Shown here: positions 1 to 23,047 of the stretch, one piece after another
Layout of the letters: every line of letters starts with the position of its first letter
Position numbering within the stretch: the stretch's first letter is position 1
Assembly: GCA_052437795.1 (NCBI GenBank)
Contig: JBQVPA010000008.1
DNA from: Flavobacterium sp.
GTDB lineage: Bacteria; Bacteroidota; Bacteroidia; Flavobacteriales; Flavobacteriaceae
Direction: 5' to 3' (one strand)
DNA: 64,000 bases
Translations under genes and position numbers: made by a program
Notes under the pieces: generated by a model
The model's input: only the letters and a program-made list of their open reading frames with translations
Database searches by the model: none
What the model was told of the DNA's origin: nothing

Positions 1-294
1 ATGGAAAGCCTTTTGCAGCAAATAGTAGAAACAGGCAGTACAATTGCAATTCTTGACATTTCGGGAGTGCCTGCTGTTGATACCCTTGTGGCGCAACACC
101 TTATAAAGACCGTTAGCGCGACACGCCTGCTAGGCGCTGAATGTATCATTAGCGGCATACGTCCGGAAATCGCACAGATCGTTGTACACCTGGGCATCGA
201 CCTTTCTAACATCATTACGAAATCGACACTTGCAAGCGCGCTTCAAACCGCATTTGCAATGCTTCAGATACAAGTCAGCAACAAAAGACAATAA
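1..294 (+). CDS. rsbR: RsbR-like STAS-domain stressosome protein, C-terminal part (gene probably starts before the window)
   Basis: STAS signature AILDISGVPAVDTLVAQHLIKTVSATRLLGAECIISGIRPEIAQ; directly upstream of rsbS-rsbT. Confidence 0.85.
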   Translation: MESLLQQIVETGSTIAILDISGVPAVDTLVAQHLIKTVSATRLLGAECIISGIRPEIAQIVVHLGIDLSNIITKSTLASALQTAFAMLQIQVSNKRQ

Positions 295-312
295 TCCACT
301 TACTGATACATT

Positions 313-711
313 ATGGATAGGATACCTATTTTAAAAATGGGCGATTTTCTGCTGGTAACCATACAAGTGGATCTATACGACCAACTGGCTGAAAACCTGG
401 AGACAGACCTGGTCAACTCAGTGAAAAAATTTGATTCGAAAGGCGTACTGATCGATATTTCATCAGTTGCGATAATCGATTCCTTTATGGGAAGGATATT
501 AGGGAATATCGGCGTTATGTCAAAGATAATGGGTGCTGAAGCAGTTATCGTAGGCATGCAGCCAGCAGTGGCGATTACTTTGGTTGAACTGGGACTCACC
601 CTTACCGGCATTACAACAGCATTGAATGTTGAAAAAGGGATGGAACTTTTGCGTTCTAAAATGGGATTAGGTTACGGCCAAAATAATTATCATGACAACA
701 ATACTGAATAG
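313..711 (+). CDS. rsbS: RsbS STAS-domain stressosome antagonist
   Basis: MDRIPILKMGDFLLVTIQVDLYD...GVLIDISSVAIIDSFMGR...VGMQPAVAITLVELG; IIDS carries the conserved phospho-Ser. Confidence 0.9.
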   Translation: MDRIPILKMGDFLLVTIQVDLYDQLAENLETDLVNSVKKFDSKGVLIDISSVAIIDSFMGRILGNIGVMSKIMGAEAVIVGMQPAVAITLVELGLTLTGITTALNVEKGMELLRSKMGLGYGQNNYHDNNTE

Positions 712-1105
712 GGAAGATCTTGTTGTCGCCAGGGAGCAGGATGTTGTGCCTTTGCGCAATAAAGTAAGAGATGCTGCGGTAAAGGTTGGGATGAGCATAT
801 TAAACCAAACCAAACTGATAACTGCGGCAAGCGAATTGGTAAGGAACCTGCTAAAGTATGGAGGGGGTGGCAGTGTTGCCATTGAGACGGTGAACAATGG
901 GCGCGATAACGGTATCCGGTTGGTATTTGCCGACAAGGGCCCGGGCATTGCTGATATAGAGATGGCAATGAAAGACGGTTACAGCACCGGAAAAAGCCTG
1001 GGGCTAGGGCTTCCGGGGACAAAAAGGCTGGTAAATGTTTTTGATATAAGATCGACGGTGGGCGAAGGCACTACCGTTACAATTATAAAATGGAAGAATG
1101 GATAA
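692..1105 (+). CDS. rsbT: RsbT serine/threonine kinase (anti-sigma-factor-type HATPase)
   Basis: QTKLITAASELVRNLLKYGGGG, DKGPGIADIEMAMKDGYSTGKSLGLGLPGTKRLV. Confidence 0.92.
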   Translation: MTTILNREDLVVAREQDVVPLRNKVRDAAVKVGMSILNQTKLITAASELVRNLLKYGGGGSVAIETVNNGRDNGIRLVFADKGPGIADIEMAMKDGYSTGKSLGLGLPGTKRLVNVFDIRSTVGEGTTVTIIKWKNG

Positions 1106-2114
1106 TGCCGCCTTTACAAGCTATAAGATCGAGGACAAAAGTTATGTTTCATTTATAAAGCGGGAGATCCATAACCTTGCGACAGCTAAGGGATATAGTT
1201 CACAAAAAACGGGTGAGATCGATATTATCATATCTGAACTCACCTCGAACCTGACAAAATTCGTTGGGGAGGGGGAACTTTTATACCGCGCTGCAAGCGA
1301 CAGGAATGGTGATTTTTTTGAGATGTACTGCCTTGATGACGGGCAGGGCATTACGAACCTCAACAGGATGCTGCAGGATGGTGAATCCTCAGCAAAAACG
1401 CTGGGGCAGGGACTTGGAGCGGTACATCGGCTAAGTTCGGAATCTTCTGTATATACACTTAAAGGATGGGGGACGGTAGTATATTCAAAAATTTACAAAG
1501 AAGGACCCAAAATCTCAAAAAATAAGTCTCCTGTTGAAGTTACAGGTATAAAGGTCAACATGCCGGGAGAACTGGTTTGTGGGGACGGATTTTTAGTAAA
1601 GGAAATTTACGGGGGCTATATGTTTTTTTTGTGTGACGGATTAGGCCACGGGGAATATGCCAGCGAAGCAGCAAATGAAGCCATTGATGCATTCAGGATA
1701 TGCAGGGAAAAAAGCCCTGCGGAGTTATTGAAGTTCATACACCTACAGGTAAAAAAAACCAGAGGGCTCGTAGGCACGGTCGCGTTTCTTGACCTGAATG
1801 AAAAAAAGTGGAGGATATGCGGGATAGGTAATATCTCGACATCAGTCATTACAGGCCTTGAAGGGAAAAATTACACGCCTTATAACGGTATCATAGGGAT
1901 GAATATCCCACGTACCTTAAATGATTCTGTAGTAGACCTTCAAAAGTACCAAACCCTGATCATGCATAGCGACGGGCTTAAGAACAGGTGGAATATTAAC
2001 AGCCTGCCGGGACTTATGAAGCATCCCCCGGGTATTATCGCTTCATGCCTGTTTAAGGATAACGCCAGGCGCACAGACGATATGTCTGTTCTTGCGGCTA
2101 AAATAAATATATGA
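1098..2114 (+). CDS. HATPase + PP2C/SpoIIE phosphatase fusion (RsbX-like)
   Basis: N-terminal IIISELTSNL...DDGQGI...TLGQGLGAV; C-terminal PP2C motifs CGDG, CDGLGHG, MHSDGL, RTDDMSV. Confidence 0.82.
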   Translation: MDNAAFTSYKIEDKSYVSFIKREIHNLATAKGYSSQKTGEIDIIISELTSNLTKFVGEGELLYRAASDRNGDFFEMYCLDDGQGITNLNRMLQDGESSAKTLGQGLGAVHRLSSESSVYTLKGWGTVVYSKIYKEGPKISKNKSPVEVTGIKVNMPGELVCGDGFLVKEIYGGYMFFLCDGLGHGEYASEAANEAIDAFRICREKSPAELLKFIHLQVKKTRGLVGTVAFLDLNEKKWRICGIGNISTSVITGLEGKNYTPYNGIIGMNIPRTLNDSVVDLQKYQTLIMHSDGLKNRWNINSLPGLMKHPPGIIASCLFKDNARRTDDMSVLAAKINI

Positions 2115-3715
2115 GTATGAAGGAGATCTTACGCATTCGCCTTGACAATGAGATGGACCTCATACTGGCACACAAACGGACAATGAAGTTGGCGGAACTT
2201 TGCGGATTGTTTTCTTCAGCGCAGACGCGATTTGCAACCGCGGTTTCTGAGATCACGCGATGTTCTATTGCTAATGGGCTTGAGTCAAGCCTGACACTGG
2301 GCATACGCACAGTTCCCGGCGGAAAGAAGGAGATCTCTGCAATTATTTATGACAGGATCGATCTGGCAAAGTGCAATCCTGAAGCTATCGCCTACGCCGA
2401 GCGACTTTCAAAAGGCATTTTAATGGACTTTGAGAGTGATGTCTATTCCATCACATTAAACGCAAAAGTACCCTATTCCGGCATCTTATCAGAAGGCAGG
2501 GCAGAATCATTCATCGATTTTTTTAAGAGGGAAGCGCCGCTGTCCCCCTATGATGAGATCCGCAGAAAGAACATACAGCTTATTGAACTTGCAGATAAGT
2601 TAAGTGAGAGTGAAGGCAGCTACAGGCAGCTTACCGATACGCTGCCGCTAATTGTATTCTCTGTCTCTAAATCAGATAAAATTAGTCTGGTCAACAAGAG
2701 CGCAGAAACTATTCTCGGACCAAGTTACAGGGATCTCTCGCCTGCGGTAATTTCACTCATTATATATAAAGATGATATTGAATATGTGGCAAGGGCCTGG
2801 AGTACCGCAAAGAAAAAATATTCGCTGCAATTATTGCAGGCAAGGGTAGTTATGGATGGCAAGGCTATTTGGCATCAAATATCTTTTGTCCCTAATGCGG
2901 ACGACAAAAATGATATAACCGGCTGGATCGTAACGATGGTTAACATTCATGCGCAAAAACTCGTTGAAGAAACCCTTAAAGATAACAAGGAACTCAAAGA
3001 GGCGCAGGATAAGCTAAGATTATACAATGACGAACTTCAAAAAAAGAATAAAGAACTGGAGCAATTCGCTTATGTGGCAAGCCACGATCTGCAGGAACCA
3101 TTAAGAAAGATCAGGAATTTTATTTCACTGGCCCAAAGGAGCAGGTCGGATAACGAGAAGCAAGACCTTTATTACAGCAAGATCAATTCTTCGGCCGAAA
3201 GGATGTCGCATCTTATCACGGATGTATTGGGGTATTCCAAACTTTCTGTCACCTCAGACGAATTTGCTATGGTTGACCTCAATAGTGTGATAGCTGATGT
3301 GATCGGTGATTTTGAGTTTTTGATCAATGAAAAAAATGCAGAGATATCAGTCGGGGAAATGCCTCAATTATCAGGCAGCCCCGTGCAGCTCAGCCAACTA
3401 TTTTACAACCTTTTAGGCAATTCCCTGAAATTTGCAGATGCAGTTCCCAAGATCAGTATATACAATGAAGTCGTTAGTGCTGAAGGCGGCCAATTCAATA
3501 AGATCACGTTATCGGATAACGGTATCGGCATTTCGTCCCAATACATCGAAAAGATCTTTACAATGTTCAAGCGCCTTCATTCCCAAAATGAGTATCCCGG
3601 TACCGGAATAGGTTTGGCCATCTGTAAGAAAATAGCAGAAAACCACTCCGGCAGGATCGAGATGGAAAGTACGCCGGGCGCTGGGACAACAGTTCATGTG
3701 TACCTTCCGGTCTAA
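2111..3715 (+). CDS. Sensor histidine kinase: RsbT-like N-terminal module, PAS, HisKA, HATPase
   Basis: N-terminal QTRFATAVSEITR; H-box YVASHDLQEPLRKI; N-box NLLGNSLKF; DNGIGI; GTGIGLAICKK. Confidence 0.87.
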   Translation: MSMKEILRIRLDNEMDLILAHKRTMKLAELCGLFSSAQTRFATAVSEITRCSIANGLESSLTLGIRTVPGGKKEISAIIYDRIDLAKCNPEAIAYAERLSKGILMDFESDVYSITLNAKVPYSGILSEGRAESFIDFFKREAPLSPYDEIRRKNIQLIELADKLSESEGSYRQLTDTLPLIVFSVSKSDKISLVNKSAETILGPSYRDLSPAVISLIIYKDDIEYVARAWSTAKKKYSLQLLQARVVMDGKAIWHQISFVPNADDKNDITGWIVTMVNIHAQKLVEETLKDNKELKEAQDKLRLYNDELQKKNKELEQFAYVASHDLQEPLRKIRNFISLAQRSRSDNEKQDLYYSKINSSAERMSHLITDVLGYSKLSVTSDEFAMVDLNSVIADVIGDFEFLINEKNAEISVGEMPQLSGSPVQLSQLFYNLLGNSLKFADAVPKISIYNEVVSAEGGQFNKITLSDNGIGISSQYIEKIFTMFKRLHSQNEYPGTGIGLAICKKIAENHSGRIEMESTPGAGTTVHVYLPV

Positions 3716-3720
3716 CAGGT

Positions 3721-6261
3721 TTAAATTTCCCCTTTAAAATGGCGCTTTAAATAAAGTGCTGTCCGGCTTTCCGGACTTTTTGCTATTTGCGCAGGGATTC
3801 CTTGTGCAACGATCTTCCCACCCTTATTGCCAGCGCCGGGCCCAATATCGATAACCCAGTCACTTTGTACGATCACATCCATGTCGTGTTCTACCACGAT
3901 CACAGTATTGCCGGCATCGACCAGTCCCTTTAGCTGTACCATGAGCTTTTCTACGTCAGACGGGTGCAGCCCTGTTGTGGGCTCGTCCATTATGTACAAG
4001 GCATTACCCTGTTGCGCCCGCTGAAGTTCGGTTGCCAGTTTTATGCGCTGCGCTTCGCCACCGGAGAGTTCTGTAGCGGGCTGGCCCAGCCGCAGGTATC
4101 CCAAACCTACCTGCCGAACGACATCGAGGGCATGTGCGACAGGTCTCTCGTTATGAAAGAAGTCATACGCCTCATTTACGGTCATCCCCAATACTTGGGC
4201 TATGTTCCTGCCTTCATATTCCACCTCAAGGGTCTGCGCATTGTATCGTGTACCATGGCAGGTAGGGCAGGGCGAGTAGACACTGGGCAGGAAGAGCAGC
4301 TCGACCATCACGAAGCCTTCTCCCTGGCAATGGGGGCAACGGCCTTTTGCGACATTGAATGAAAATCTCCCGGCATCGTATTTCCTTGATCGTGCCAGTT
4401 TTGTCGCTGCGAATAATTTCCGGATATTGTCAAAAAGGCCAGTATAGGTGGCAAGGTTCGATCTGGGTGTCCTGCCGATCGGTTTTTGGTCGACCACCAC
4501 AAGCCGTTTTATATCTTCAAGGCCTTCTGTAATAGTCCCTCCAAGAGTTTCGATATTTGCCTGCTCTAAAGGGTTTTCATCGGTTTCGGCAGTAGTATCT
4601 ATCGATGCGCCAAGGTGGTTTGCGACCAGTTCGACAAGCACCTGGCTTACCAGTGTGCTTTTCCCGGAACCCGATACCCCTGTAACGCTTGTGAACACGC
4701 CCAAAGGAAGATCTACCGACAAGTCGCTTAGATTATTTTTGGTTACGCCCGTTAATTTAAGCCATCCCTTTGGAACCCTTGTAGCCTTGCCCGCCACTTT
4801 CCTGTCACCGAAAATATAGTGGCGCGTTATCGATCCCTCCACTTTTTTAAGGCCGTCGGGCGGACCGCTATACAGCACCTGCCCTCCCGATTCCCCGGCC
4901 GCAGGGCCAACGTCGACTATCCAGTCGGCATGCCGGATCACATCGATCTCATGCTCAACGACAAACAATGAATTGCCGGATGCCTTAAGCCTGTCCAGCG
5001 ACCGTAATAATGCCTCGGTATCCGCGGGGTGCAGCCCCGCGGATGGCTCGTCCAGGACATACACCACACCGAACAGGTTCGAACGTACCTGGGTAGCAAG
5101 CCGGAGCCGCTGCAATTCGCCCGGCGAAAGGGTAGGGGTGCTGCGTTCGAGGGTAAGATAGCCAAGGCCAAGGTCCAGGATCACGTTCAGCCTGGCCAGC
5201 AGGTCTTCGGCAATGCGATAGGCTACCAGTGTTTTTTCGGGGTGATCCTTATCGGCTTTTGCCAATTGTTCGGACAGGGGTTTTGCGAATGCTGCGAATA
5301 TTCCTGCCATATCCTCTAAAGGCACCCGGCTCATTTCGGCAATATCTAATCCCGCAAAGGTCACCGACAACGATCCTTTACGCAGCCGCTTTCCATTGCA
5401 TAGCGGACATTCGCTGCTTATCATGTATTGGGATACCCGTTTCTTCATAAGCGCGCTCTGCGTATTGGAGAACGTATGCATTACATAGCGCCTTACCCCC
5501 GTGAACGTGCCCATATAATCAGGCGGCATTTTTTTCTTTACTGCCTCCCTTGTCTGTTCCGGGCTGAGTCCCGGGTACACAGGCACTACCGGCTGCTCGT
5601 CGGTAAATAGTATCCAGTCACGGGTCTCTTTGGGCAGATCTTTCCACGGAATATCGACATCGTGGCCCAGGGTTACCAGTATATCCCGCTGGTTTTGCCC
5701 CTGCCAGGCCAGCGGCCATGCAGCAACAGCGCGTTCCCTTATTGTAAGCGAGTCATCGGGTACCATAGATCTCTCGGTCACTTCGTATACTTTGCCCAGG
5801 CCATGGCACTGCGGACAGGCACCTTCGGGCGTGTTGGAAGAGAAGGCTTCAGCATATATTATCGATTGGCCGGGGGGATAATCGCCGGCCCGGGAGTATA
5901 GCATCCTGAGCAGGTTGGACAACGTGGTAACACTGCCTACAGAAGACCGTGTACTCACAGCGCCGCGTTGCTGCTGCAGGGCTACCGCCGGGGGCAGCCC
6001 CTCGATCGAGTCGACCTCAGGTATGGCCATTTGGTTGAACAGCCTCCGGGCGTATGGCGATACCGAATCCAGGTACCTGCGTTGCGCTTCGGCATATAAC
6101 GTACCAAAGGCAAGGGAGGATTTTCCGGAACCGGAAACTCCAGTAAATACCACAAGCGCGTCGCGTGGTATGTCCACATTGATATCCTTGAGGTTATGCT
6201 CGCGTGCGCCATTTACTGTTACAAACCCTGTGAATTCTTTCTTGTTCTTTTCCTTTGTCAT
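3721..6261 (-). CDS. uvrA: UvrA-family ABC ATPase, class II (UvrA2/DrrC-like, appears to lack the UvrB-binding domain)
   Basis: GAREHNLK, two Walker A motifs GVSGSGKS, signatures LSPGELQR and LSGGEAQR, CxxC zinc modules; short segment between SRAG and the first zinc finger; 846 aa. Confidence 0.88.
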
Positions 6262-6420
6262 TGGATAATTTTAGTAATGAGGGGCATTTTTAAACGTACT
6301 GTTCCTCCAATGCTTGCACTGCCACCGGCGGTACTGATATGAATTTGGGCAACCCGGTCACAAAACGATATAAGCGTAGCCGGTAAGCGATCTGGGGCTG
6401 TGGAACCTACTATGCCGGAA

Positions 6421-9400
6421 TCATACTATCGGCAGGAACAGATTAAACGCGGCCCCTTTGCCGGGTACTCCTTCCGCGGTTATAAAGCCATTATGCTTGA
6501 AGGCGATCTTGCTGCAGATAGCCAGTCCGATCCCCGTCCCTTCGAATTTATCCTTACCGTGCAGGCGCTGGAAAGGCTCAAAAATACGTTGTGACTGATC
6601 CTGTGCGAAACCTATACCGTTATCTGTAATACTGATCTTATGATAGCGGGTTTCCGGATCTCCCTCAATATTGCCCTTTTCTGCAATGGCTGCAGTGATC
6701 TTTATAATGGGTGCCTTTTCCGGCGACCGGTATTTTAGTGCATTGCTGACAAGGTTTACAAGCAGCTGTCGCATCAGTAGTGGGTGTGCCGAGATCATGG
6801 GCAGCTTTGCAACTGTAACCGTGGCTTCTGTTGATCGTATCGATTCTGAAAGTTCCTCTGTAACCTCATTAACAAGCGACTCCAGATCAGTATTCTCAAA
6901 ATCTTTTACATCAAGGTTATTCAGGTGCGAATAATTAAGCAGGTCGTCCGTAAGCTGTTGCATCCTGCGTACCGAAACCATGATCCTCTCCAGGTAGGTA
7001 GCAGCTTCTTCAGAGATCGTAGAGCTGCTGTCCTTTAGTATCATCTTCCCGAAGGTATGTATCTTGCGCAGTGGTTCCTGCAGGTCATGGCTGGCGATAT
7101 AATTAAACGTGGTCAATTCCCTGTTGCTCTCGATCAGCTCGCGGTTGTTGTGCTGCAGGGTGATATTTGCAGCCCTTATCTCAGTAATATCCTCTATCGC
7201 CAAAAGCAGCAAAGGTTCGCCAAGTACATCGCTGAGTATCGGCCTTATGTTAAGCAGCATGACCCTTTCCTCTTTGTTGGAAAGGCGCATCTTAAGTTCC
7301 AGCCCCTCTATGGTTACCTTATCCTGCAGTGCCCTCGCAAGCTCTCCTTTTAGATCACCGATATGCCATTGCACATTTTTAAGGTCAAAGATCATCTTGC
7401 CATCGGTGTCCTGCTCATTGGTTTGCAGGTATTTGTAAAAAGCCGCGTTCGCGCTCTTAATGCTGAATTCCTTATTGAGTATCACCAGCGGCTCCCGTAT
7501 GGTCTGTATGATCGCTTCGGCATACAGCCTTGCCGTAGTTAGCTGTTCCTGCCTGTCAATGAGCTCATCATTTATGGTAGTGAGCTCTTCATTGTTGGAG
7601 CGTAATTCTTCTGTTGAAGTCTCAAGTTCCTCATTGAGCGTCTGCAATTCTTCGCTGTTGCTAAGCAGTTCCTCATTGGCGCTTTGCAGTTCTTCGTTGG
7701 CCACTTCCTGCTCCTCGCTCACCTTGCGTATGTCGTGGCGCATCTGCTCGATCTCTGCCTCAAGTTGCTTTATCCTTTCTGACTCCGCGTTTTTGCGTTT
7801 TAAGATAGCCATACCTTCATCTGCTACTAATGGCAGCTTGTGGAATAATATCAGTATATGGCCTTCTTCATTCGCGTTTTCCAACGGAATGACTTCAAGG
7901 CTCACCAGAAAATTCTCTCCTCTTAGAGCCAGTTGCTCCTTCAGTACCGGTTCATTGTCAGTCTTTACCTTTAGCAGGGCAGCACGAAGCTCGAACACGA
8001 GGTCCGGCCGTAGCATTTTGAATATATTAAAATTAGGCTTTCCGGGAGGCTGCGACAGGAACTGGCCCGTCTCTCCATGAAAGTGGATGATCTCTCTTGT
8101 GTTATTTATAATTACGCCTGCGGGAGTATATTTAGTAAATAGCAGCTCATTAGCCTTTCTTTGGAAATCAGGTTCATAAGGTTTCTTCCGGGGCTCGCTT
8201 TGCCTTTCGGTCTGCTCATTTTCAAAACGCTTATAGGGTGCAGGCACAAAGCTTTCCGATGCATTTTTTCGGGCATATATCTTTTGCCCCTTTAATAATG
8301 GCTCGAAAAGGTTAGATGACGTGCCCGCTGTTTCCGACTTTCCTAAGAACAATACGCCATTTGGCCTTAGTGAATAATGGAATGTGCTGAAGGTCTTTTT
8401 TTGCAGGAACGGGTCAAGATAGATCAGCACGTTCCTGCAGCTGATGATATCCATTTTTGCGAATGGAGGGTCTTTGGTAAAGTTATGTACGGCAAAAATG
8501 CACATGTCCCGTATCTCCTTTTTGATATGGTAGGCGCTCTCGATCTTCGTGAAATAGTTAGTAAGCCTTTCTTCTGGGATATTAAGGATCTCCTGCCTGC
8601 TGTAAATGCCTGTCCTTGCTTTAGAAATGACATTTTCAGAAATATCGGTGGCAAATATCTGTACTTTATAATCCTGTATGCGCTCGCCCAGGAATTCATG
8701 AAGGCTTATCGCCATCGAGTAGGCTTCCTCTCCTGTAGAGCATCCTGCGATCCAGACCCTGATGGTCTCGCCGGCCCTCTTATCTTCGATCACCCGGGGA
8801 AAGGCATTTTCGCACAGCATGCTGAATATCTTGCTGTCCCGGAAAAAGTAGCTTACGGGAATAAGGATATCATTAAAAAGCGACAGCTGCTCCTGTTTGT
8901 TCGTGCGCAGGTAGTCGAGGTAGGCTTCGGTATCCTCGCGTTTTGTCATCACCATCCTGCGCGCGATCCTCCGGCGTATCGTGGCCTGCTTATAATGTGT
9001 AAAATCGTTGCCTGTTTTCAGTTTCAGCAGCCTGAGGATGCTTTTGTAAAATTCATCATCTTTAGACGAGAGTATATCATCATCTGCGTAGGCATTACTG
9101 CTTTCATAGGCGGTGTCGAGGTCATGCAGCTTTTGGGGTATCTCTTCAACTTCCAGTATAAAGTCGGCCGCACCTGCCCGTATCGCGCTAAGCGGCATGC
9201 CGTCGTGGGCGGCCGATTCAGGGTTTTGCACAAAAGTAGAGCCCCCCATTTCTTTAATGGTCTTCAGTCCGAGGGTGCCGTCATATCCGGTGCCTGAAAG
9301 TATCACGCCGCGTGCGAATCCCTGGTGTACTTCAGCAAGTGAGTTAAAGAACTGGTCGATCACAAGGTTCAGCTTTTTTCCTGTATCGCGTGGATCAAGC

Positions 9401-9705
9401 TTAAGCTTTCCGTCGTATACGGTAAGCATCTTATTCTCCGGGATAATGTAGATATGGTTGGGCGCGATGTTGATGTCGTCCGTGATCTCATGTACCGGAA
9501 GCTCAGTTTCACCAGCCAGTAATTCTGTCAGGATGCTTTCATGTGCCGGGGCCAGGTGCTGTACCAATACGTAGGCCATGCCGGAATTTGGCGGGATGTT
9601 GCGCAAAAATTTCCGGAAAGCGTCGAGCCCCCCTGCAGATGCACCGATACCCACCACGGGAAAATTTATAGAATGATGTTCGGGTAATGCTTTTGTTGAA
9701 CCCAT
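6421..9705 (-). CDS. CheB methylesterase-CheR methyltransferase-coiled coil-PAS-histidine kinase fusion
   Basis: VGIGASAGGL, VQHL and LSGTGYDG (CheB); FFRD, WIAGCSTGEEAYS and SCRNVLIY (CheR); YIASHDLQEPLRKI and GTGIGLAIC (kinase). Confidence 0.9.
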   Translation of the reverse strand: MGSTKALPEHHSINFPVVGIGASAGGLDAFRKFLRNIPPNSGMAYVLVQHLAPAHESILTELLAGETELPVHEITDDINIAPNHIYIIPENKMLTVYDGKLKLDPRDTGKKLNLVIDQFFNSLAEVHQGFARGVILSGTGYDGTLGLKTIKEMGGSTFVQNPESAAHDGMPLSAIRAGAADFILEVEEIPQKLHDLDTAYESSNAYADDDILSSKDDEFYKSILRLLKLKTGNDFTHYKQATIRRRIARRMVMTKREDTEAYLDYLRTNKQEQLSLFNDILIPVSYFFRDSKIFSMLCENAFPRVIEDKRAGETIRVWIAGCSTGEEAYSMAISLHEFLGERIQDYKVQIFATDISENVISKARTGIYSRQEILNIPEERLTNYFTKIESAYHIKKEIRDMCIFAVHNFTKDPPFAKMDIISCRNVLIYLDPFLQKKTFSTFHYSLRPNGVLFLGKSETAGTSSNLFEPLLKGQKIYARKNASESFVPAPYKRFENEQTERQSEPRKKPYEPDFQRKANELLFTKYTPAGVIINNTREIIHFHGETGQFLSQPPGKPNFNIFKMLRPDLVFELRAALLKVKTDNEPVLKEQLALRGENFLVSLEVIPLENANEEGHILILFHKLPLVADEGMAILKRKNAESERIKQLEAEIEQMRHDIRKVSEEQEVANEELQSANEELLSNSEELQTLNEELETSTEELRSNNEELTTINDELIDRQEQLTTARLYAEAIIQTIREPLVILNKEFSIKSANAAFYKYLQTNEQDTDGKMIFDLKNVQWHIGDLKGELARALQDKVTIEGLELKMRLSNKEERVMLLNIRPILSDVLGEPLLLLAIEDITEIRAANITLQHNNRELIESNRELTTFNYIASHDLQEPLRKIHTFGKMILKDSSSTISEEAATYLERIMVSVRRMQQLTDDLLNYSHLNNLDVKDFENTDLESLVNEVTEELSESIRSTEATVTVAKLPMISAHPLLMRQLLVNLVSNALKYRSPEKAPIIKITAAIAEKGNIEGDPETRYHKISITDNGIGFAQDQSQRIFEPFQRLHGKDKFEGTGIGLAICSKIAFKHNGFITAEGVPGKGAAFNLFLPIV

Positions 9706-9752
9706 AAGGAATTATAGTGATGTGATATTCTGCAGCGTTAGTCAACTGCCTG

Positions 9753-10178
9753 CTACTGCGTATTCGGGTGTTTGGCCATGCTCCAATAGTCAAAAATGAC
9801 CCTGAAGGTATTTTTAACCGTTTCGTAGTCACTGCCTTTCCTGAAAAATCCCTGAACGGTCATTTCGGTAAATGCCTCATTGACATCCTTCTGGTTGGCC
9901 ATGGTGGAGTAAAATACAAAGGGTATGCTTTTTCTACGAAGCTTTGGGTCGCTGTCTATCAGTTTTTTAAATTCCAGCCCGTTGTTACCCGGCAACTTTA
10001 CATCTGAAAATATAATATAAATAGACTTTGCGGTGGTGCTAAGGTATTCAAGGCCCTGTTCGGTCGTTTCAAACCATTGTACCGGATTTTTTATCCCGAG
10101 CTCATCAAAAATGGAAGTGAGCAAATGCCTGTCGTCGGCATCATCCTCAATGATAATTATTTCCCCTGTTTTAGACAT
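9753..10178 (-). CDS. Single-domain response regulator (CheY/Rcp1-like)
   Basis: IIIIEDDADD, FSDVKLPGNNGLE, FYST, FFRKG; start moved to MSKTGE because the longer ORF overlaps a promoter box. Confidence 0.85.
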   Translation of the reverse strand: MSKTGEIIIIEDDADDRHLLTSIFDELGIKNPVQWFETTEQGLEYLSTTAKSIYIIFSDVKLPGNNGLEFKKLIDSDPKLRRKSIPFVFYSTMANQKDVNEAFTEMTVQGFFRKGSDYETVKNTFRVIFDYWSMAKHPNTQ

Positions 10179-10205
10179 AATATAAAGTATAGGATCGATG
10201 AATAA

Positions 10206-10246
10206 CAAATATACCTAATGTATGTCGCATTTCCTTACACAATTTT
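10206..10246 (-). promoter_or_regulatory. Promoter with TGTAA box (AAAATTGTGTAA) and -7 element TATATTTG
   Basis: Box at 10235-10246 (minus), 21 nt gap, then TATATTTG at 10206-10213, which matches the Bacteroidota TAnnTTTG consensus. Confidence 0.6.
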
Positions 10247-10262
10247 GCATAAGTGTACTAAA

Positions 10263-10703
10263 TTAAGGGCTTATCACAAATTCGCTGAGCTGTTTTGGAA
10301 TATGCTGTTCCCAGTCATATGACAATACCTTTGCGATCAGTTTTTCAAGCCCCTCCAGGTCAAAAGGTTTTACCAAGTAGGAACTGGCCCCATATTTAAA
10401 TGCTTTTTTGATATCCGTTGGATCCTGGCTTGTGGAGTAGACAATTACCGGTACGGTATTGAACTTAGGATCTTTTTTAATATTGTCTAATGTTTCCAGC
10501 CCATTCATGACCGGCATGTTAATATCCACAAATATAATATCGGGCTCCGGCTGTCCGTTCTTAAGTTTGGAAACGAGCTCCAGGCCATCATTGGCAACAA
10601 TAAGGTTGCACTTTAATTTGAGCTTGTTCAGCGCGAACTTAAAGAAGTAGACATCGTCCATATCGTCTTCAGCAAGATAGATATTCCGGATAGCAAGTTT
10701 CAT
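10263..10703 (-). CDS. Single-domain response regulator (CheY/Rcp1-like)
   Basis: YLAEDDMDD, IFVDINMPVMNGLE, VYSTS, YLVKP. Confidence 0.9.
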   Translation of the reverse strand: MKLAIRNIYLAEDDMDDVYFFKFALNKLKLKCNLIVANDGLELVSKLKNGQPEPDIIFVDINMPVMNGLETLDNIKKDPKFNTVPVIVYSTSQDPTDIKKAFKYGASSYLVKPFDLEGLEKLIAKVLSYDWEQHIPKQLSEFVISP

Positions 10704-10997
10704 AAGTTAATTATTTAGAAACCTAAAAATAGATCTTAAAAGAATTGACTTACAAATAAGTAGTCCTGATAAAAAATAGATTTGGCATCGGTTGGATCTT
10801 GTAAAGTTAGGTAGATATAAACCCTGCAGCTATTACTTTAACGTAAAATGTTGGTTTACAGTTAAATATTAAAATTTACTTATCGGATGTCGGGCAAAGT
10901 ATAGGCGTTTTGAAAATTCCCATATATTGTTCAAAGCTATATAGTAGACGGTCCTGTTATTTGATATGTTTCGTTCTAAAAAATTAGATCAACGATC

Positions 10998-11037
10998 ATG
11001 CGTGTAAGATTTTTGTATTAAACAATATTTAATTTTT
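10998..11037 (+). promoter_or_regulatory. Candidate TGTAA-box promoter of the araC-response regulator operon
   Basis: CGTGTAA with TGTAA at 11003-11007, 22 nt gap, TAATTTTT at 11030-11037; weaker match than the other copies. Confidence 0.35.
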
Positions 11038-11127
11038 AACACATTGTGTTATTATTATCATAATTGGGAAGCATAGTAGTGAACAACTGTAATGATCTTT
11101 TATATTTACCTGATAAACACACCTATC

Positions 11128-11691
11128 ATGAACCTGCACCTTCGATACAATCTTGACAAGATGTGTCGTGCTGTTTTAACAGAACAGCTTGACAAACTTG
11201 GCTTCCGATACTCGCTTACCGACAGTGCATGCGTATATTTTTACGACCATGTACCTGATGAAGACTATGTCAAACTGCATGAGGCTCTACAGCAATATGG
11301 CATAGAGATACTCGATAACAAAAAGGCTGTAATGGTGCAAAAGGTGAAAGCCATTATTGGAGGAATGCTGGATAATAGCAATGCGCCGCTCATGAAAGTA
11401 TCAGCACACCTGTCAAATGAGCTTGGCGAGAATTACCGTACCATTGCCCAGATATTTAGCGAAACCTGCCACATGACCATTGAGAACTTCATCATCATGT
11501 GCAAGATCGAGCGCGCAAAGCAGCTGCTGATCGCCGAAGCGCTTTCCCTTACCGAGATCTCTTACAAACTCAACTACAGCAGCGTGGCCCATCTTTCCAA
11601 CCAGTTCAAGAAGATCACCGGCCTTACGCCCAGTTCTTTCCAAAAGATAGCCGTAAGCAGGAGGCATTTTAAAACGACCATGTTAAACTAA
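11128..11691 (+). CDS. Short AraC-family transcriptional regulator
   Basis: C-terminal KIERAKQLL...LSLTEISYKLNYSSVAHLSNQFKKITGLTPSSF; start at MNLHLRY preferred. Confidence 0.88.
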   Translation: MNLHLRYNLDKMCRAVLTEQLDKLGFRYSLTDSACVYFYDHVPDEDYVKLHEALQQYGIEILDNKKAVMVQKVKAIIGGMLDNSNAPLMKVSAHLSNELGENYRTIAQIFSETCHMTIENFIIMCKIERAKQLLIAEALSLTEISYKLNYSSVAHLSNQFKKITGLTPSSFQKIAVSRRHFKTTMLN

Positions 11692-11704
11692 ATTACAGGA
11701 ATAT

Positions 11705-12148
11705 ATGTATCTTGATAAACTTCATATTGTACTCGCAGAAGACGATCAGGATGACCGTCTTCTCTTTAATAACGTTTTTAATCATGTAAAGATCAACCAC
11801 ACCCTAAAAATTTGTGAGGATGGTATAGAACTGATGGATCACCTCAGGAATTCCGAAGAGGTTCCTGATATTATTTTCCTGGACCTTACCATGCCGGGCA
11901 AGTCCGGTATCGAATGCCTCAAAGAAATTAAAAAAGATCCAAGGCTTCGCGACATAACCATTGCGATATATTCCACAACTTCTGTAAAGGCAACGATCGA
12001 GCAGGCTTTCATACTCGGGGCCAATGTATTCATCAAAAAGCCTAACGAGTACGATGAGCTTAAAAAAGTATTGACAGAAGTTATCTACATCAACTGGCAG
12101 TACATCACCGAAGGGTTCAATAAAGAACATTTCATGATCAGCTACTAA
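11705..12148 (+). CDS. Single-domain response regulator (CheY/Rcp1-like)
   Basis: VLAEDDQDD, IFLDLTMPGKSGIE, IYSTT, FIKKP; 13 bp after the araC stop. Confidence 0.9.
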   Translation: MYLDKLHIVLAEDDQDDRLLFNNVFNHVKINHTLKICEDGIELMDHLRNSEEVPDIIFLDLTMPGKSGIECLKEIKKDPRLRDITIAIYSTTSVKATIEQAFILGANVFIKKPNEYDELKKVLTEVIYINWQYITEGFNKEHFMISY

Positions 12149-12173: not shown

Positions 12174-12206
12174 AAAAGAGAGACCTACATACGGCTCTCT
12201 TTTTTT
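12174..12206 (+). terminator. Intrinsic terminator after the araC-RR operon
   Basis: AAAAGAGAG...CTCTCTTTT stem followed by a T run. Confidence 0.6.
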
Positions 12207-12620: not shown

Positions 12621-13217
12621 TTATTCCATTTCCTCCTGCATGCCTTCTGCCGTTCCTTCACCTTCGACAGCATCAAGATTGATCGTATTATATGCGGCAT
12701 CGGTAAGTATCACATCCGCTTCTTTTTCCTCGGCCAGGGTTTCCTCCAGCAACGAGGCAACCTCTTCTTCACCAAGGATCTTCGCAAAAGCGACAAGCGT
12801 ACCGTAAGAAGCGATCTCGTAATGCTCGATCTTTTGCGAAGCTGAGATGATGCCTGCATCCCTCACAGGACCCAGCTCGGTATCTTTCATAATGTTTTCG
12901 CCTTCTTTTATCAGGCCTTCCATAGCCTCGCATTTTTTACCGCGGCCGTTTTCGCCAAGCATTTCAAATACCTGCTGCAGGCGCTCCACCTGGCGTTCGG
13001 TCACGGCTAGGTGCTCGTTGATCGCCTCTTTAAGTTTTGGGTCGGAAGCATTGTTCGCCATCTTCGGCAGTGATCTTACCAGTGCCCGCTCAGCATATAC
13101 GATATCTTTAAGCTCATCGATAAAAAGTTCCCTCAGGCCTTCTGCCGCCGAGGATCTTGCAGGAACGGTCCTTTGTCCTTTGCCGTAATTGCTTTTGTTT
13201 TGTGCTGAATTTGCCAT
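12621..13217 (-). CDS. DUF892 / YciE-YciF ferritin-like stress protein (copy 1)
   Basis: LFIDELKDIVYAE, KKCEAMEGLIKEG, RDAGIISASQKIEHYEIASYGTL; start MANSAQ. Confidence 0.9.
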   Translation of the reverse strand: MANSAQNKSNYGKGQRTVPARSSAAEGLRELFIDELKDIVYAERALVRSLPKMANNASDPKLKEAINEHLAVTERQVERLQQVFEMLGENGRGKKCEAMEGLIKEGENIMKDTELGPVRDAGIISASQKIEHYEIASYGTLVAFAKILGEEEVASLLEETLAEEKEADVILTDAAYNTINLDAVEGEGTAEGMQEEME

Positions 13218-13251
13218 AGTTTTTTTATTTTGAATTAGTTGAATACTTGGA

Positions 13252-13731
13252 TCACCTCTTACAATGTTCATACAGAAGGCCCGCTGCCCTGTCTGTTACC
13301 TGAAGGATCATTTCTTCCGGAGCGCCTTTATATACAGTCCTGTCATTTATGGTTCCTGTTGGCGTCACAATAGAAAGGAACATGGTACCCACGGGCTTCT
13401 CGGAAGTTTCACTGCCACCGGCTGTCGTAAGCCCTGTAACGGCAACAGTGACCTTCGAATTAAATAACCGTGCCGCCTGCTTTGCCAACGCTGCCGTTAC
13501 CTCGGCAGACTCGGGTGTATGGTCTTCTATAAGCTTGTGAGGCACATTTAGTATCTGCTCTTTTACAAACACCTCATAGCACGAGATCCCGCCCCGTAAA
13601 ATTTTTCCTGATTCCTCCGTTAGTGCAAATTCCGAACACATCCTGCCGGCCGTAGCGCTCTCAACGAAAGCTATGTTCCAACCCTTTGCCGCGATGGCCG
13701 CGCTGCATCGCTTTATGATCTCTGATGGCAT
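13252..13731 (-). CDS. cinA: CinA C-terminal domain protein (PncC-like NMN deamidase family)
   Basis: IAFVESATAG, ISCYEVFVKEQIL, AVTGLTTAGGSETSEKPVGTMF. Confidence 0.8.
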   Translation of the reverse strand: MPSEIIKRCSAAIAAKGWNIAFVESATAGRMCSEFALTEESGKILRGGISCYEVFVKEQILNVPHKLIEDHTPESAEVTAALAKQAARLFNSKVTVAVTGLTTAGGSETSEKPVGTMFLSIVTPTGTINDRTVYKGAPEEMILQVTDRAAGLLYEHCKR

Positions 13732-13759: not shown

Positions 13760-13822
13760 CAAAGATACCTGTCCGTTAGGCCGTAGGTTTTACATAACCT
13801 CCCGAACATATTACACGATTTT
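13760..13822 (-). promoter_or_regulatory. cinA-DUF892 promoter with tandem TGTAA boxes
   Basis: TTACA at 13790 and 13811 (21 bp apart; distal box AAAATCGTGTAA on minus), 22 nt gap, TATCTTTG at 13760-13767. Confidence 0.65.
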
Positions 13823-14042: not shown

Positions 14043-14083
14043 TAATGCAAAAAAGTGCATATGTAACGGGCTTTTTTGCATTA
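14043..14083. terminator. Bidirectional hairpin between the DUF3606 relic and ligD
   Basis: TAATGCAAAAAAG / CTTTTTTGCATTA 13 bp stem. Confidence 0.65.
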
Positions 14084-16111
14084 TTCAGTTAACAGTCCCT
14101 GCGCGAGAGGAAGTGCTTTCTTCATATCAATTCCCTTACCAAGGCTGCCGATAAAAATATCGCCTTCCGACCGGATGCGTGCTACAGCGTTCTGTATCGT
14201 AAAATCCTTCATCTTTAACCCTTTTTTGACTTCTTCCCAATGCAGCGGCATCGATACCGTGGCACCGGGTTTCGGGCGAAGTGAATAGGGGCAGGCGATC
14301 GTTGCACCCGGGCGGTTCTGCAGGAAGTCGAGGTACATTTTTCCTTCCCGGTTCTTTATCTGGCGCTCGGTGCTTGTGAATTCCGGCAATCGTTTATGTA
14401 CGATGGATACAATGAGCTTCCCGAACAATTGCGATTCATCATAAGAGTATTTCGCACCAAGCGGTATGTAGATATGGATGCCTGTCGACCCCGATGTCTT
14501 TACATATCCCGGCACACCAATAGCATCAAGCACCGCCTTAACTTCCTGTGCCGCAATGATGACCTGCTCAAACGTAGTATCCTTGTCAGGATCAAGGTCG
14601 ATAACGCAATAATCAGGGTCATCAGGATGTTTTATGGTGCTAAACCACGGGTTCATCTCTATGCAGCCTAGCGATGCCATGTAAAGCAGTGTTGCCTCAT
14701 CTTTGCCAACGAGGAATTCCTTGTCTTCACCATCGCTCGTAGTATAAGGGTATGTGTTCGCCCACTCCGGTGCTTTGCCTTTTACATCTTTCTGGTAAAA
14801 GCTTTTGCCGTAGATGCCATTGGGGAACCTGTTGAGCGACATGGGCCTGTCCTTAAGGTAAGGCAATATGTAGTCGGCGACCTGGTAGTAATAGTTGAAC
14901 ATATCCCGCTTGGTATATCCTTCTTCCGGCCAGTACACCTTGCTAAGGTTGCTGAATTTCAGGCTGTGCCCATTGATCTTCTTTACCTGCGATGCTTCTG
15001 TGGGGTTCAGCAACGTTTGCCTTCCGGTATCTTTGGGCGCAGTTACCAATGTTGTTTTGTTGCCTTTTTCTTTTCCTTTTGTAAGCTGCTCAGTCGCTGC
15101 CGCGGTTTCCAAAACCACATCGATCGCTTTTTTATCGGCGCGCATCCCTTCAAATGAAGGATGGCGGAAGACCCCGTCTGATGTGATCTCTGTAAAGCTC
15201 ACTTCACATACCAGCTTTGGCTTTAGCCATGTTGCCACGGCTTTTGGTGGGTTAGGACGAAAACGCGAAGGCTTATTGATGTCGGGCTCATATGTAAACG
15301 GCATTGCTGAGGTGATCAGCGGAGCGAACTGCTCCATCATTTCCCTTTGCGCTTTTGCGGTAAAGCCGGTACCTACTTTACCCACATATTCTAATTTTCC
15401 ATTGTTATGGACACCGAGCAGCAAGGAACTGAATAACTTATTTGTACCCTCATTTTTAGTGAATCCCCCAATAACGACTTCCTGCCTTTGGTTCACCTTG
15501 ATCTTCAGCCAATCCCTGGAGCGGCTGTCGGGAGAGTAAACGCTCGTCAGTTTCTTGGCCATGATCCCTTCCAGCCCCATCTTTTGCGCGGCTTCATAAA
15601 AGTCAAGGCCTCCGGCGGTAAATACCTGGCTCATCCGTATGCGGTCATCGGTCGCAGGCAGTATTTCCTTAAGGAGCGCCTGGCGCTCCGACAGTGGCAG
15701 GGCCATAACATCTTTCCCGTCATACCACAACAGGTCGAAGGCGTAGTAAACAAGGTCGCCGTCGGCTTCGCTCCGCCAGTTCTGCAATGCCCCAAAATTG
15801 GCTTTACCATCTTTATTGACTACCAGGATCTCTCCGTCTAGTACAGCGTTGATGCCAAGTTTAGCCATTGCCGAAACTATGGGATAGTATTTTTCGGTAA
15901 AGGGCTTGTTGTTGCGTGATGTAATTTCAACTGCTCCGTCATTGACATACGCCAGCGCCCTGTAACCGTCCCATTTTACTTCATAAGACCAGTTGGAGTC
16001 ATCGAAAGGCTCATTGACCAGCGTAGCAAGCATAGGCTTGACACCGGCAAGCATTTTAGAGGGTTTGTGGGCCGACTTGGGTTTTCCGGGAGATGTTTCT
16101 TTTTTGATCAC
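14081..16111 (-). CDS. ligD: NHEJ DNA ligase D (ligase + polymerase domains, no phosphoesterase domain recognised)
   Basis: YEVKWDGYR adenylation motif, EGIMAK, WLKIK, FRHPSF; polymerase domain with LSKVYWP, IDLDP, KTSGSTGIHI, YLDFLQN, PYSLRP. Confidence 0.92.
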   Translation of the reverse strand: MIKKETSPGKPKSAHKPSKMLAGVKPMLATLVNEPFDDSNWSYEVKWDGYRALAYVNDGAVEITSRNNKPFTEKYYPIVSAMAKLGINAVLDGEILVVNKDGKANFGALQNWRSEADGDLVYYAFDLLWYDGKDVMALPLSERQALLKEILPATDDRIRMSQVFTAGGLDFYEAAQKMGLEGIMAKKLTSVYSPDSRSRDWLKIKVNQRQEVVIGGFTKNEGTNKLFSSLLLGVHNNGKLEYVGKVGTGFTAKAQREMMEQFAPLITSAMPFTYEPDINKPSRFRPNPPKAVATWLKPKLVCEVSFTEITSDGVFRHPSFEGMRADKKAIDVVLETAAATEQLTKGKEKGNKTTLVTAPKDTGRQTLLNPTEASQVKKINGHSLKFSNLSKVYWPEEGYTKRDMFNYYYQVADYILPYLKDRPMSLNRFPNGIYGKSFYQKDVKGKAPEWANTYPYTTSDGEDKEFLVGKDEATLLYMASLGCIEMNPWFSTIKHPDDPDYCVIDLDPDKDTTFEQVIIAAQEVKAVLDAIGVPGYVKTSGSTGIHIYIPLGAKYSYDESQLFGKLIVSIVHKRLPEFTSTERQIKNREGKMYLDFLQNRPGATIACPYSLRPKPGATVSMPLHWEEVKKGLKMKDFTIQNAVARIRSEGDIFIGSLGKGIDMKKALPLAQGLLTE

Positions 16112-17831: not shown

Positions 17832-17843
17832 AAAATCATGTAA
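17832..17843 (+). promoter_or_regulatory. TGTAA box upstream of katE
   Basis: Exact AAAATCATGTAA; no clear TAnnTTTG at the expected spacing. Confidence 0.5.
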
Positions 17844-22035: not shown

Positions 22036-22096
22036 AATTATGTAAGGCACACAAAAAATCATGTAACGTTAGCCCTTTATGAGATACATAACTTTA
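22036..22096 (+). promoter_or_regulatory. DUF6766 promoter with tandem TGTAA boxes
   Basis: AATTATGTAA (TGTAA 22041) and AAAATCATGTAA (TGTAA 22062), 21 bp apart; 22 nt gap; TAACTTTA at 22089-22096. Confidence 0.65.
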
Positions 22097-23005: not shown

Positions 23006-23047
23006 AAAATCATGTAAGTAACACCAGCCATTGTATTCGCACATTTG
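23006..23047 (+). promoter_or_regulatory. GT-glf-GH operon promoter with TGTAA box
   Basis: Exact AAAATCATGTAA at 23006-23017, 22 nt gap, CACATTTG at 23040-23047. Confidence 0.6.

Follow-up and report, generated by a model that had tools for sequence, protein, structure and literature searches.

What might two sensor kinases, three receivers lacking output domains, and a single DNA-binding protein have to do with one another when all are encoded as near neighbors? The question is raised by a 64,000-nucleotide stretch of DNA from Flavobacterium sp. (GenBank assembly GCA_052437795.1, contig JBQVPA010000008.1), which in its entirety is here called the window and which corresponds to C8:8422-72421, i.e., a portion of the 79-kb contig C8 of a 4.06-Mb, 36-contig genome that is 99.98% complete. 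A preliminary description of the window had proposed a convergent relay, that is, with both of its kinases, HK1 and HK2, feeding three receivers, RR1, RR2, and RR3, and thereby a small AraC-type regulator. The observations upon which that proposal was built are confirmed by the analysis presented here, and its interpretation as a whole is partly supported. The best-supported description is instead one of three separate signaling modules, rsb-HK1, RR2-RR1-HK2, and araC-RR3, found side by side within a neighborhood of stress genes. As to how these modules function, we see a slightly better than even chance that araC-RR3 represents a split response regulator which serves as the transcriptional output, with HK2 the likeliest phosphate donor to RR3. 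Domain calls were made by Pfam on the proteins of the window.

The araC gene (11128..11691, + strand) encodes a protein of 187 amino acids (Pfam HTH_18, 3e-17). Its open reading frame opens at 11092, but because homologues are 182 to 190 amino acids long, with more than 7,900 homologues of this size, the ATG at 11128 has been taken as its start. As previously suggested, this is the only protein with a DNA-binding domain match within the window. RR3 (11705..12148, +) is an Rcp1-type single-domain receiver of 147 amino acids (Pfam Response_reg), with its ATG at 11705 and the araC stop codon ending at 11691. The two genes therefore are separated by just the 13 nucleotides that had been reported, are in different frames, and presumably share a transcript. 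The probable end of that transcript is an imperfect hairpin, AGAGAGACC...GGCTCTCT along with seven T's (12177..12206, +), which was read from the sequence and is not listed by the terminator scan. Downstream of this hairpin no kinase gene follows. A second, paralogous pair is found elsewhere in the genome (C1:727973-728990; E of 1.5e-55 for the AraC protein and 4e-53 for the receiver), with an identical 13-nucleotide spacer and no kinase nearby.

That these two genes belong together is indicated by their persistence as neighbors. Of the RR3-type receivers of 40 related genomes (E <= 1e-31), 14 in all, 13 are encoded directly downstream of a small AraC gene, with the 14th found at the start of a contig. 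A wider survey covered 80 AraC-centred loci from many Bacteroidota lineages as well as from metagenome-assembled genomes labelled as Ignavibacteriaceae, Melioribacteraceae, and Calditrichota. Of the 85 small AraC genes encountered there, 27 have a gene for a single-domain receiver next downstream, at a median gap of 18 nucleotides, 9 are followed directly by a gene for a PAS hybrid kinase possessing a receiver domain, and 49 have neither a receiver nor a hybrid kinase adjoining. Nineteen of the 27 pairs then carry a kinase of the same H-box class as HK1 and HK2, and of four of these that were inspected by Pfam, three are CHASE3-PAS-HisKA-HATPase proteins (~595 amino acids) and one is PAS-only. 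F. johnsoniae is among the species with an operon of this araC-receiver-kinase type. The pairs nearest to the one studied here (L001-L005) are without a kinase. In a receiver tree, RR3 and all of the receivers encoded behind small AraC genes fall together in one clade (97/75). As judged from this gene order and kinship, araC-RR3 is a conserved unit, one found across Bacteroidota, and the earlier link of araC with its receiver is well borne out among genomes. Together, the AraC protein and its receiver probably switch on stress-protection genes.

The AraC protein itself is modelled (predicted local distance difference test score, pLDDT, of 88.5) as an approximately 63-amino-acid N-terminal domain of beta-alpha-beta-beta-alpha-beta layout, a linker helix, and then the AraC DNA-binding domain. 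The N-terminal domain displays a heavy-metal-associated (HMA) pattern but with a single near-invariant cysteine, Cys13, which at least 90% of 105 homologues retain, and its only fold match is a weak one, to the CopA metal-binding domain (E 0.8). Fold comparison did not identify in it the cupin-type ligand-binding and dimerization domain of classic AraC. A profile of this domain matched 1,801 proteins among 1.84 billion representatives, and in the best 150 of those 1,801 matches it lies at or near the N-terminus, with all but one of these 150 proteins no longer than 250 amino acids. The sole long one is a 620-amino-acid fusion of a small AraC protein with PAS-HisKA-HATPase. The DNA-binding domain, for its part, has as its nearest relative by sequence 12aw, which is a hybrid two-component protein of Bacteroides (4e-07), and is nearest in fold to the C-terminal domains of AraT and YesN, also matching AraC, MarA, GadX, and AdpA. 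The AraC domains of 12aw, AraT, and YesN normally share one chain with a receiver.

Might the receiver here, though on a separate chain, contact the AraC protein as well? The 13-nucleotide spacer puts araC and RR3 out of frame with each other, and for that reason an in-frame pair from another locus (L009) was modelled instead, as an artificial read-through with the intervening TAA stop codon read as Gln. The resulting fusion has a predicted template modelling score (pTM) of 0.79 and a mean pLDDT of 89.6, with an unstructured linker (pLDDT ~50), versus a pTM of 0.64 for the AraC protein alone, and suggests a defined arrangement of AraC and receiver.

It is also conceivable, though very unlikely in our view, that the AraC protein senses for itself, that is, through its HMA-like domain, e.g., by oxidation of Cys13, with RR3 a co-expressed phosphate sink or a factor with some other target. 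Such self-sensing would agree with how consistently Cys13 is retained, with the HMA-like layout and the weak CopA resemblance, with the presence of catalases in the putative regulon, and with the 49 small AraC genes that have no receiver beside them and yet are found in loci with sites. What it leaves unaccounted for is that RR3-type receivers hardly ever occur apart from a small AraC gene, that the spacers between the two are so short, that a fusion of a small AraC protein with a kinase exists, and that the DNA-binding domain resembles those which are fused to receivers; the high pTM of the modelled fusion, too, would speak for a partnership.

On what genes would the AraC protein act? The preliminary description had tied it to a TGTAA regulon. 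Bare TGTAA occurs 203 times versus 141 expected, but is too short to be useful, and therefore a 12-mer and a 21-base-pair repeat have been used instead. The 12-mer, AAAATCRTGTAA, is present five times in the genome, with four of those in one 22.6-kb block of the window, 3946-26562, upstream of katE, the DUF6766 gene, the GT-glf operon, and cinA-DUF892. Sites recognized by AraC-family proteins usually are direct repeats 21 base pairs apart, and two such repeats are found in the same block, i.e., ATCGTGTAA-N12-GTTATGTAA (13790..13819, - strand; position weight matrix, PWM, score of 17.2) upstream of cinA-DUF892 and ATTATGTAA-N12-ATCATGTAA (22037..22066, +; PWM score of 19.3) upstream of the DUF6766 gene. 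Single AAAATCATGTAA boxes precede the large catalase gene, katE (17832..17843, +), and GT-glf, which is an operon of a glycosyltransferase gene, a UDP-galactopyranose mutase gene, and an unknown gene (23006..23017, +).

In strict form the repeat, with its 21-base-pair period, reads [A/G/T]TYRTGTAR-N12-[A/G/T]TYRTGTAR. AraC-centred loci, 1.38 Mb in total, contain 22 instances of this pattern and none at other spacings from 15 to 28, versus 2 instances in 0.57 Mb of control loci and 2 in the 4.06-Mb genome itself, both of the latter within the block. In two other loci (L001, L113) the repeats are located between RR3 and katE. Genes behind the sites resemble, by eye rather than by Pfam scan, those for CsbD, manganese catalase, and BON proteins, and include as well genes for an ECF-sigma-like protein, a KaiC-like ATPase, and araC itself. 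Over the whole genomes of 41 relatives the strict repeat occurs 16 times versus 13 in a reversed control, and it is only the position of sites beside araC, rather than their total count, that is informative there: 6 of the 16 have a small AraC gene no more than 10 kb away, with one of them 78 nucleotides upstream of araC. Similarly, a genome-wide histogram of RTGTAA-pair spacings displays no peak at 21, that is, the signal needs both the fuller half-site and the location of the site. A PWM scan of the studied genome returned many AT-rich background scores of 10 to 16, and therefore the PWM by itself cannot define the regulon. A link of the AraC protein to the TGTAA genes nonetheless is well supported by association, i.e., by the strong enrichment of 21-base-pair repeats around AraC genes, and the earlier suggestion stands to that extent; it presumably is by binding to these repeats that the AraC protein would act.

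Two further observations on such sites can be added. A third 21-base-pair repeat, GATGTAA-N14-GATGTAA, is found at C8:304-333, 8.1 kb upstream of the window, and the 79-kb contig C8 carries each of the three RTGTAA pairs that the genome has at spacing 21. Also, in five loci of more distant Flavobacterium genomes (L121, L123-L126) katE is preceded by a CheB/CheR kinase gene and araC is absent from the vicinity, and there the katE promoters share another conserved element, GGTAATTGTGAAAC.

If RR3 is the receiver of the AraC protein, what then of the other two? RR1 (9753..10178, -) is of 141 amino acids if started, as is likely and as in its orthologues, from the ATG at 10178, with its open reading frame opening at a TTG at 10208. 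RR2 (10263..10703, -) is the first gene of the RR2-RR1-HK2 run. That all three are receivers without outputs, each with a Y-S-T motif, had been stated previously and is borne out: Their only Pfam match is Response_reg (141-151, 146, and 147 amino acids for RR1, RR2, and RR3, respectively), and the YST lies within strand beta4 in each (FVFYSTM, VIVYSTS, IAIYSTT). The phosphorylation-site residues are EDDADD, FSDVKLPG, YST, and RKG in RR1, EDDMDD, FVDINMPV, YST, and VKP in RR2, and EDDQDD, FLDLTMPG, YST, and KKP in RR3. The acidic pocket, acceptor Asp, beta4 Ser/Thr, and beta5 Lys thus are complete in all three. YST is rarer than expected, found in just 4 of the genome's 47 receiver-containing open reading frames, i.e., in these three plus the RR3 paralogue on C1. 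The three receivers nevertheless are not equivalent, at least as can be read from their trees and neighbors, with different clades and different conserved partners for each. RR1 belongs to a clade (100/99) that consists mostly of receivers adjoining CheB/CheR kinases, RR3 belongs to the araC-associated clade described above, and RR2 is a long, unplaced branch with no conserved partner. Orthologues of RR1 (62-65% identity) are found directly upstream of HK2 orthologues in three syntenic loci (L001, L003, L113), from which a counterpart of RR2 is absent.

The two kinases were said to share an H-box, and so they do: That of HK1 reads FAYVASHDLQEPLRKIRNF and that of HK2 FNYIASHDLQEPLRKIHTF, with an identical 12-mer, ASHDLQEPLRKI, in both. 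This, however, is a trait of their class rather than something peculiar to this pair, as seven kinases of the genome match SHD[LI][QRKS][ESAQN]P[LIV] and approximately ten share the catalytic-core class. The residues following the H-box differ between them, RNFISLAQ in HK1 versus HTFGKMIL in HK2. The class also was said to be that of Cph1 and the bacteriophytochromes, pairing with Rcp1-like receivers. The best named Protein Data Bank (PDB) relatives of the HK1 core are Deinococcus bacteriophytochromes (2e-30, versus 2e-19 for generic kinases such as HK853), and those of RR3, with this search having covered RR3 rather than RR1 or RR2 separately, include RcpA (5e-13), the bacteriophytochrome-receiver fusion 8avv (3e-12), Rcp1 (1.2e-11), and RcpB (1.1e-09). 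As the nearest solved relatives of both the HK1 core and RR3 are of phytochrome type, that statement holds. The genome's own, true bacteriophytochrome (C1:1052218-1054485), one of the seven, also is of this class, with an N-terminal motif CEQEPIHIPGSIQPHG and an H-box STHDLQEPLRKI. Pfam finds no PAS-GAF-PHY photosensory module in either HK1 (PAS only) or HK2 (CheB, CheR, and PAS), which is to say that HK1 and HK2 belong to the phytochrome kinase class yet are not phytochromes.

In a tree of kinase cores, HK2 is placed in a clade (98/98) with the bacteriophytochrome and the kinases of araC operons, while HK1 falls outside of it. Used as a guide to the donor of RR3, this tree has HK2 nearer than HK1, but it is weak evidence for specificity. 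As to the bacteriophytochrome, its operon (C1:1051134-1054485) is complete and consists of genes for an Rcp1-like receiver, a heme-oxygenase-like protein, and the bacteriophytochrome of 755 amino acids.

The relay of the preliminary description may now be considered in its strict form, with HK1 and HK2 phosphorylating all three receivers and these jointly controlling the AraC protein. All of its components are of one kinase and receiver class, a rare YST is common to the receivers, the three modules co-occur within the genus, stressosome operons and CheB/CheR kinases often are within 25 kb of each other, and in none of the loci seen is HK1 accompanied by its own receiver. Nonetheless we view a strict relay as distinctly unlikely, and the idea of two kinases acting on three equal receivers as not supported. 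The receivers are of different clades, with RR1 tracking CheB/CheR kinases, RR3 tracking AraC, and RR2 not found in the syntenic loci; the HK1 core is not in the subclade that HK2 shares with kinases of araC operons; the residues past the H-box are not the same; and a relative that retains HK1 does without the whole block. HK1, moreover, is at the end of a closed operon of five genes. Nor are the two nearby kinases the usual partners of araC-receiver pairs, which instead are the CHASE3-PAS kinases of the pairs' own operons.

HK2 (6421..9705, -) combines a CheB methylesterase domain, a CheR_N/CheR methyltransferase, a coiled coil, PAS, HisKA, and HATPase, and homologues, i.e., CheB/CheR kinases, are encoded by 55 of the 201 Flavobacterium genomes compared. 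Neither the chemoreceptor signaling domain PF00015 nor CheW (PF01584) is detected in the whole, 99.98% complete genome, with matches returned for the controls in 8 of the 14 reference genomes, and therefore the CheB and CheR domains of HK2 are without their classical substrate. Within the spacer between RR2 and RR1, upstream of RR1-HK2, AAAATTGTGTAA (10235..10246, -) can be read from the sequence as an 11/12 variant of the stress box. RR2-RR1-HK2 is best explained as a CheB/CheR-fused kinase of the phytochrome class along with its own type of receiver, RR1, presumably co-transcribed. CheB/CheR kinases recurrently adjoin katE-DUF892, GT-glf, DUF6766, cinA, and ligD genes.

HK1 (2111..3715, +) possesses a conserved 165-amino-acid N-terminal domain followed by PAS, HisKA, and HATPase, with 1044 homologues of its N-terminal 300 amino acids. 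It is, as had been described, linked to a stressosome, being the last gene of what presumably is an operon whose frames all overlap or abut. Upstream of HK1 are the 3' end of rsbR, which begins outside of the window and encodes a C-terminal STAS domain (1..294, +; Pfam STAS, 1e-10), rsbS with a single STAS domain (313..711, +; its position conserved in L084-L087), rsbT for a HATPase-type serine kinase (692..1105, +; Pfam HATPase_c, HATPase_c_2), and, at the place of RsbX, a PP2C phosphatase gene (1098..2114, +; Pfam SpoIIE and HATPase_c_2) whose product has an RsbT-like, kinase-type N-terminal domain (hhalign probability of 99.1% versus RsbT). In orthologous loci the rsbR position is occupied by a protein of 277 to 299 amino acids with RsbRD_N and STAS domains. 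All components by which a stressosome is recognized, i.e., RsbR-type STAS, RsbS STAS, and RsbT kinase, followed by a PP2C phosphatase, thus are present in one operon. The five-gene unit is kept in six other loci (L084-L087, L123, L125), with downstream genes varying among Flavobacterium genomes and no adjoining receiver in any locus seen. The best explanation of rsbR-rsbS-rsbT-PP2C-HK1, going by domains and gene order, would be a stressosome whose output is a kinase of the phytochrome class.

The N-terminal domain of HK1 displays a weak, co-linear likeness to RsbT (BLASTP E 0.002; hhalign probability of 31%), and could conceivably be an RsbT-like pseudokinase. It may be that three proteins in a row have an RsbT-like docking domain in common, with the match strong for the PP2C protein and weak for the HK1 N-terminal domain (2111-2605). 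In one Flavobacterium genome (L123; G299:C6:42000-61200, G299:C6:36478) two rsb-HK1 copies flank a CheB/CheR kinase, with katE-DUF892 and GT-glf found in between.

Do the three modules nevertheless occur together? Co-occurrence was assessed by Fisher tests over the 201 genomes of the genus, uncorrected for phylogeny or genome size. An RR3-type receiver is found in 17 of 17 genomes with the HK1 module versus 79 of 184 without (p = 1.6e-6), a CheB/CheR kinase in 15 of those 17 versus 40 of 184 (p = 6.5e-8), and an RR3-type receiver in 40 of 55 genomes with a CheB/CheR kinase versus 56 of 146 lacking one (p = 1.1e-5). The absence of co-occurrence across genomes that the preliminary description had named as counting against its proposal thus is not seen. 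Physically, the HK1 module and a CheB/CheR kinase are no more than 25 kb apart in six genomes, HK2-RR1 is beside or approximately 5 kb from araC-RR3 in the three syntenic loci as well as here, and RR3-like receivers are 1 to 3 kb from CheB/CheR kinases in four more genomes (G284, G216, G207, G332). A looser network, with multiple kinases feeding RR3-AraC, fits these co-occurrence data.

From a different perspective, however, all of this could reflect a shared stress neighborhood and nothing further. The modules then would not talk to each other: RR3-AraC would be fed by an unlinked kinase, HK1 would signal to a distant receiver, and RR1 and RR2 would serve HK2 in a non-transcriptional manner, e.g., as a phosphate sink or in feedback on its CheB/CheR part. 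This we consider to be unlikely. It gains from the sheer number of candidates, as the genome holds approximately 10 kinases of the class and approximately 12 Rcp1-like receivers, with several of the latter orphans. It gains, too, from most genomes having their araC-receiver pair far from both the CheB/CheR kinase and the HK1 module, and with its own kinase, as well as from the second araC-receiver pair, which is without an adjoining kinase here and in F. beibuense is beside a bacteriophytochrome operon. It is harder to square with the strength of the phyletic co-occurrence, with the proximity of HK2-RR1 to araC-RR3 in this and the three syntenic loci, with the box variant upstream of RR1-HK2, and with the studied genome lacking a CHASE3-PAS kinase of the class. 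In F. beibuense (L002:10001-14487) the orthologue of the second pair is located directly upstream of genes for a receiver, a heme oxygenase, and a bacteriophytochrome, and light therefore may feed the AraC protein in some species.

Returning to the split response regulator that we favor, its operation might be as follows. Phosphorylated RR3 would bind to the AraC protein, making it active, and the active protein would then act at the 21-base-pair TGTAA direct repeats before cinA-DUF892 and the DUF6766 gene, and at the single boxes before katE and GT-glf. The studied genome was searched for an orthologue of the CHASE3-PAS kinase and none was found, with the only CHASE3 protein there being a hybrid kinase of another class. 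With this dedicated kinase absent, having been lost in this lineage, RR3 must be phosphorylated by a different kinase of that class. HK2 would be the best candidate donor, considering its proximity to araC-RR3 and the placement of its core within the clade of araC-operon kinases, with HK1 a possible second input. The contact between RR3 and AraC, that between AraC and the repeats, and each of the phosphotransfer steps, along with any convergence of the two kinases, are what we infer from these associations.

A number of points weigh against such a scheme. The co-occurrence statistics ignore phylogeny and genome size, and most HK1 genomes are large, at approximately 5 Mb. Adjacency is weak evidence for phosphorylation partners given the approximately 10 kinases and 12 receivers of the class. 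For the contact of RR3 with AraC, the modelled fusion provides just pTM and pLDDT, with no view of the interface and no negative control. Sites are found as well at small AraC genes without an adjoining receiver, 49 of 85, and therefore the AraC protein can work receiver-less, perhaps via its conserved Cys13. The regions upstream of araC and RR2 in the window lack a good repeat site, with a best PWM score there of 1.9, and no TGTAA repeat is found in the katE promoters of distant Flavobacterium that have a CheB/CheR kinase but no adjacent araC. Lastly, there is a relative that lacks the entire block and yet retains the rsb-HK1 operon.

That relative is represented by a metagenome contig (L084; 91-93% DNA identity) in which positions 1-3945 of the window are joined straight to 26563-34380. 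Missing from it is the 22.6-kb block, i.e., the uvrA paralogue, HK2, RR1, RR2, araC, RR3, and the stress genes, with two DUF892 genes, cinA, ligD, an ankyrin gene, katE, the DUF6766 gene, and GT-glf among its contents. A 3' remnant of the uvrA paralogue persists on the contig, and hence the relative has undergone a deletion, as opposed to an insertion having occurred here. Of HK1 and HK2, only HK1, along with rsb, is kept.

How does a split response regulator compare with what is known? The YesN and AraT regulators and the Bacteroides hybrid systems are alike in that an AraC-type output, with its two helix-turn-helix motifs, is under a phosphorylated receiver, as is proposed here. They are unlike in that here receiver and DNA-binding domain are separate genes, with the order araC-receiver-kinase, that the AraC protein bears its own 63-amino-acid, HMA-like N-terminal domain, and that the receiver is of the Rcp1 type. 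araC-RR3 thus may work like the receiver-AraC response regulators, yet is not a member of that family. With Cph1-Rcp1 and the bacteriophytochrome pairs are shared the H-box and core class of the kinases and the single-domain receivers with kinship to RcpA, Rcp1, and RcpB, but the inputs of HK1 and HK2 are a stressosome and a CheB/CheR-PAS unit instead of a photosensory module. In the general stress response of Alphaproteobacteria, several kinases feed single-domain receivers and PhyR, with the output being a sigma factor mimic along with an anti-sigma factor. Several same-class kinases, single-domain receivers, and one transcriptional output thus are found there as well, but no component is known to be homologous, and the output here would be an AraC activator.

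Gram-negative stressosomes have been little studied (PMC9237108). That of Vibrio vulnificus has a two-component output, and a four-gene RsbRST(X) module has been reported in Bacteroidetes, among other phyla (PMC9237108). As in V. vulnificus, rsbR, rsbS, rsbT, and a PP2C gene here are followed by a two-component kinase rather than by a sigma-B cascade. Different is the RsbT-like N-terminal domain of the PP2C protein, and the operon is without a second signaling protein or receiver. Single-domain receivers that act by binding to transcription factors have been described with FlmD-SoxR (PMC8880074) and VemR-HrpG (PMC9923393), in which a protein consisting of a receiver alone exerts its control of transcription via another protein that binds DNA, just as proposed for RR3. 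These pairs are not known to be operon partners conserved across a phylum, and the transcription factors are of other families.

More broadly, araC-RR3 could be the DNA-binding end of a Bacteroidota general stress response that operates without an alternative sigma factor, with several phytochrome-class kinases feeding one Rcp1-type receiver. This we offer tentatively, and would sooner bet against than for. The kinases in question would be stressosome-gated, CheB/CheR-adapting, CHASE3, and, in some species, bacteriophytochrome, and the phosphorylated receiver would turn on the small, HMA-like AraC protein by binding to it directly. Bacteroidota are not known to possess RpoS, sigma-B, or EcfG, and Rcp1-type receivers are not known to have an established DNA-binding partner. 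A literature search found no described regulator of general stress genes in Bacteroidota, nor an account of an AraC-receiver(-kinase) operon, of its repeat sites, or of any Flavobacterium stressosome. If true, then this general stress reading would identify both the long-missing output that Rcp1-type receivers act through and one target downstream of a Gram-negative stressosome, and, if the pair works as proposed, then nature would have provided in it a response regulator divided between two proteins. Three questions in any case are made testable. One is the target of output-less Rcp1-type receivers, for which there now is a candidate partner conserved across a phylum. A second is the signal output of stressosomes outside of Firmicutes, with all stressosome-kinase genomes of the genus carrying an RR3-type receiver. 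The third is how Bacteroidota control their general stress genes, i.e., those for catalases and for DUF892, CsbD-like, and BON-like proteins.

Some remaining features of the locus may be considered more briefly. RR2 and araC diverge from an AT-rich control region of 424 nucleotides (10704..11127; GC content of 0.36). Scanning for sigma-70 promoters and for terminators gave, on the whole, no more than the shuffled background, with the promoter model being one that is unsuited to Bacteroidota. Past HK1 is a terminator-like hairpin with a T-run (3761..3783, +), a consensus match only, which lies within the 3' end of the convergent uvrA paralogue. The block beyond reads as a general stress or dormancy set, with its two DUF892 genes (YciE/YciF-like), cinA, ligD (ligase and primase-polymerase), and a large catalase gene; genes of this set, these among them, are found at 12621-13271, 13252-13731, 14081-16111, 17874-20081, and 20100-20684. 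The uvrA paralogue (3721..6261, -; 846 amino acids; Pfam UvrA_DNA-bind, ABC_tran) is the first gene of this variable block and is outside of the signaling system. Its GC content, 0.53-0.56, is clearly above the 0.44-0.48 of its neighbors.

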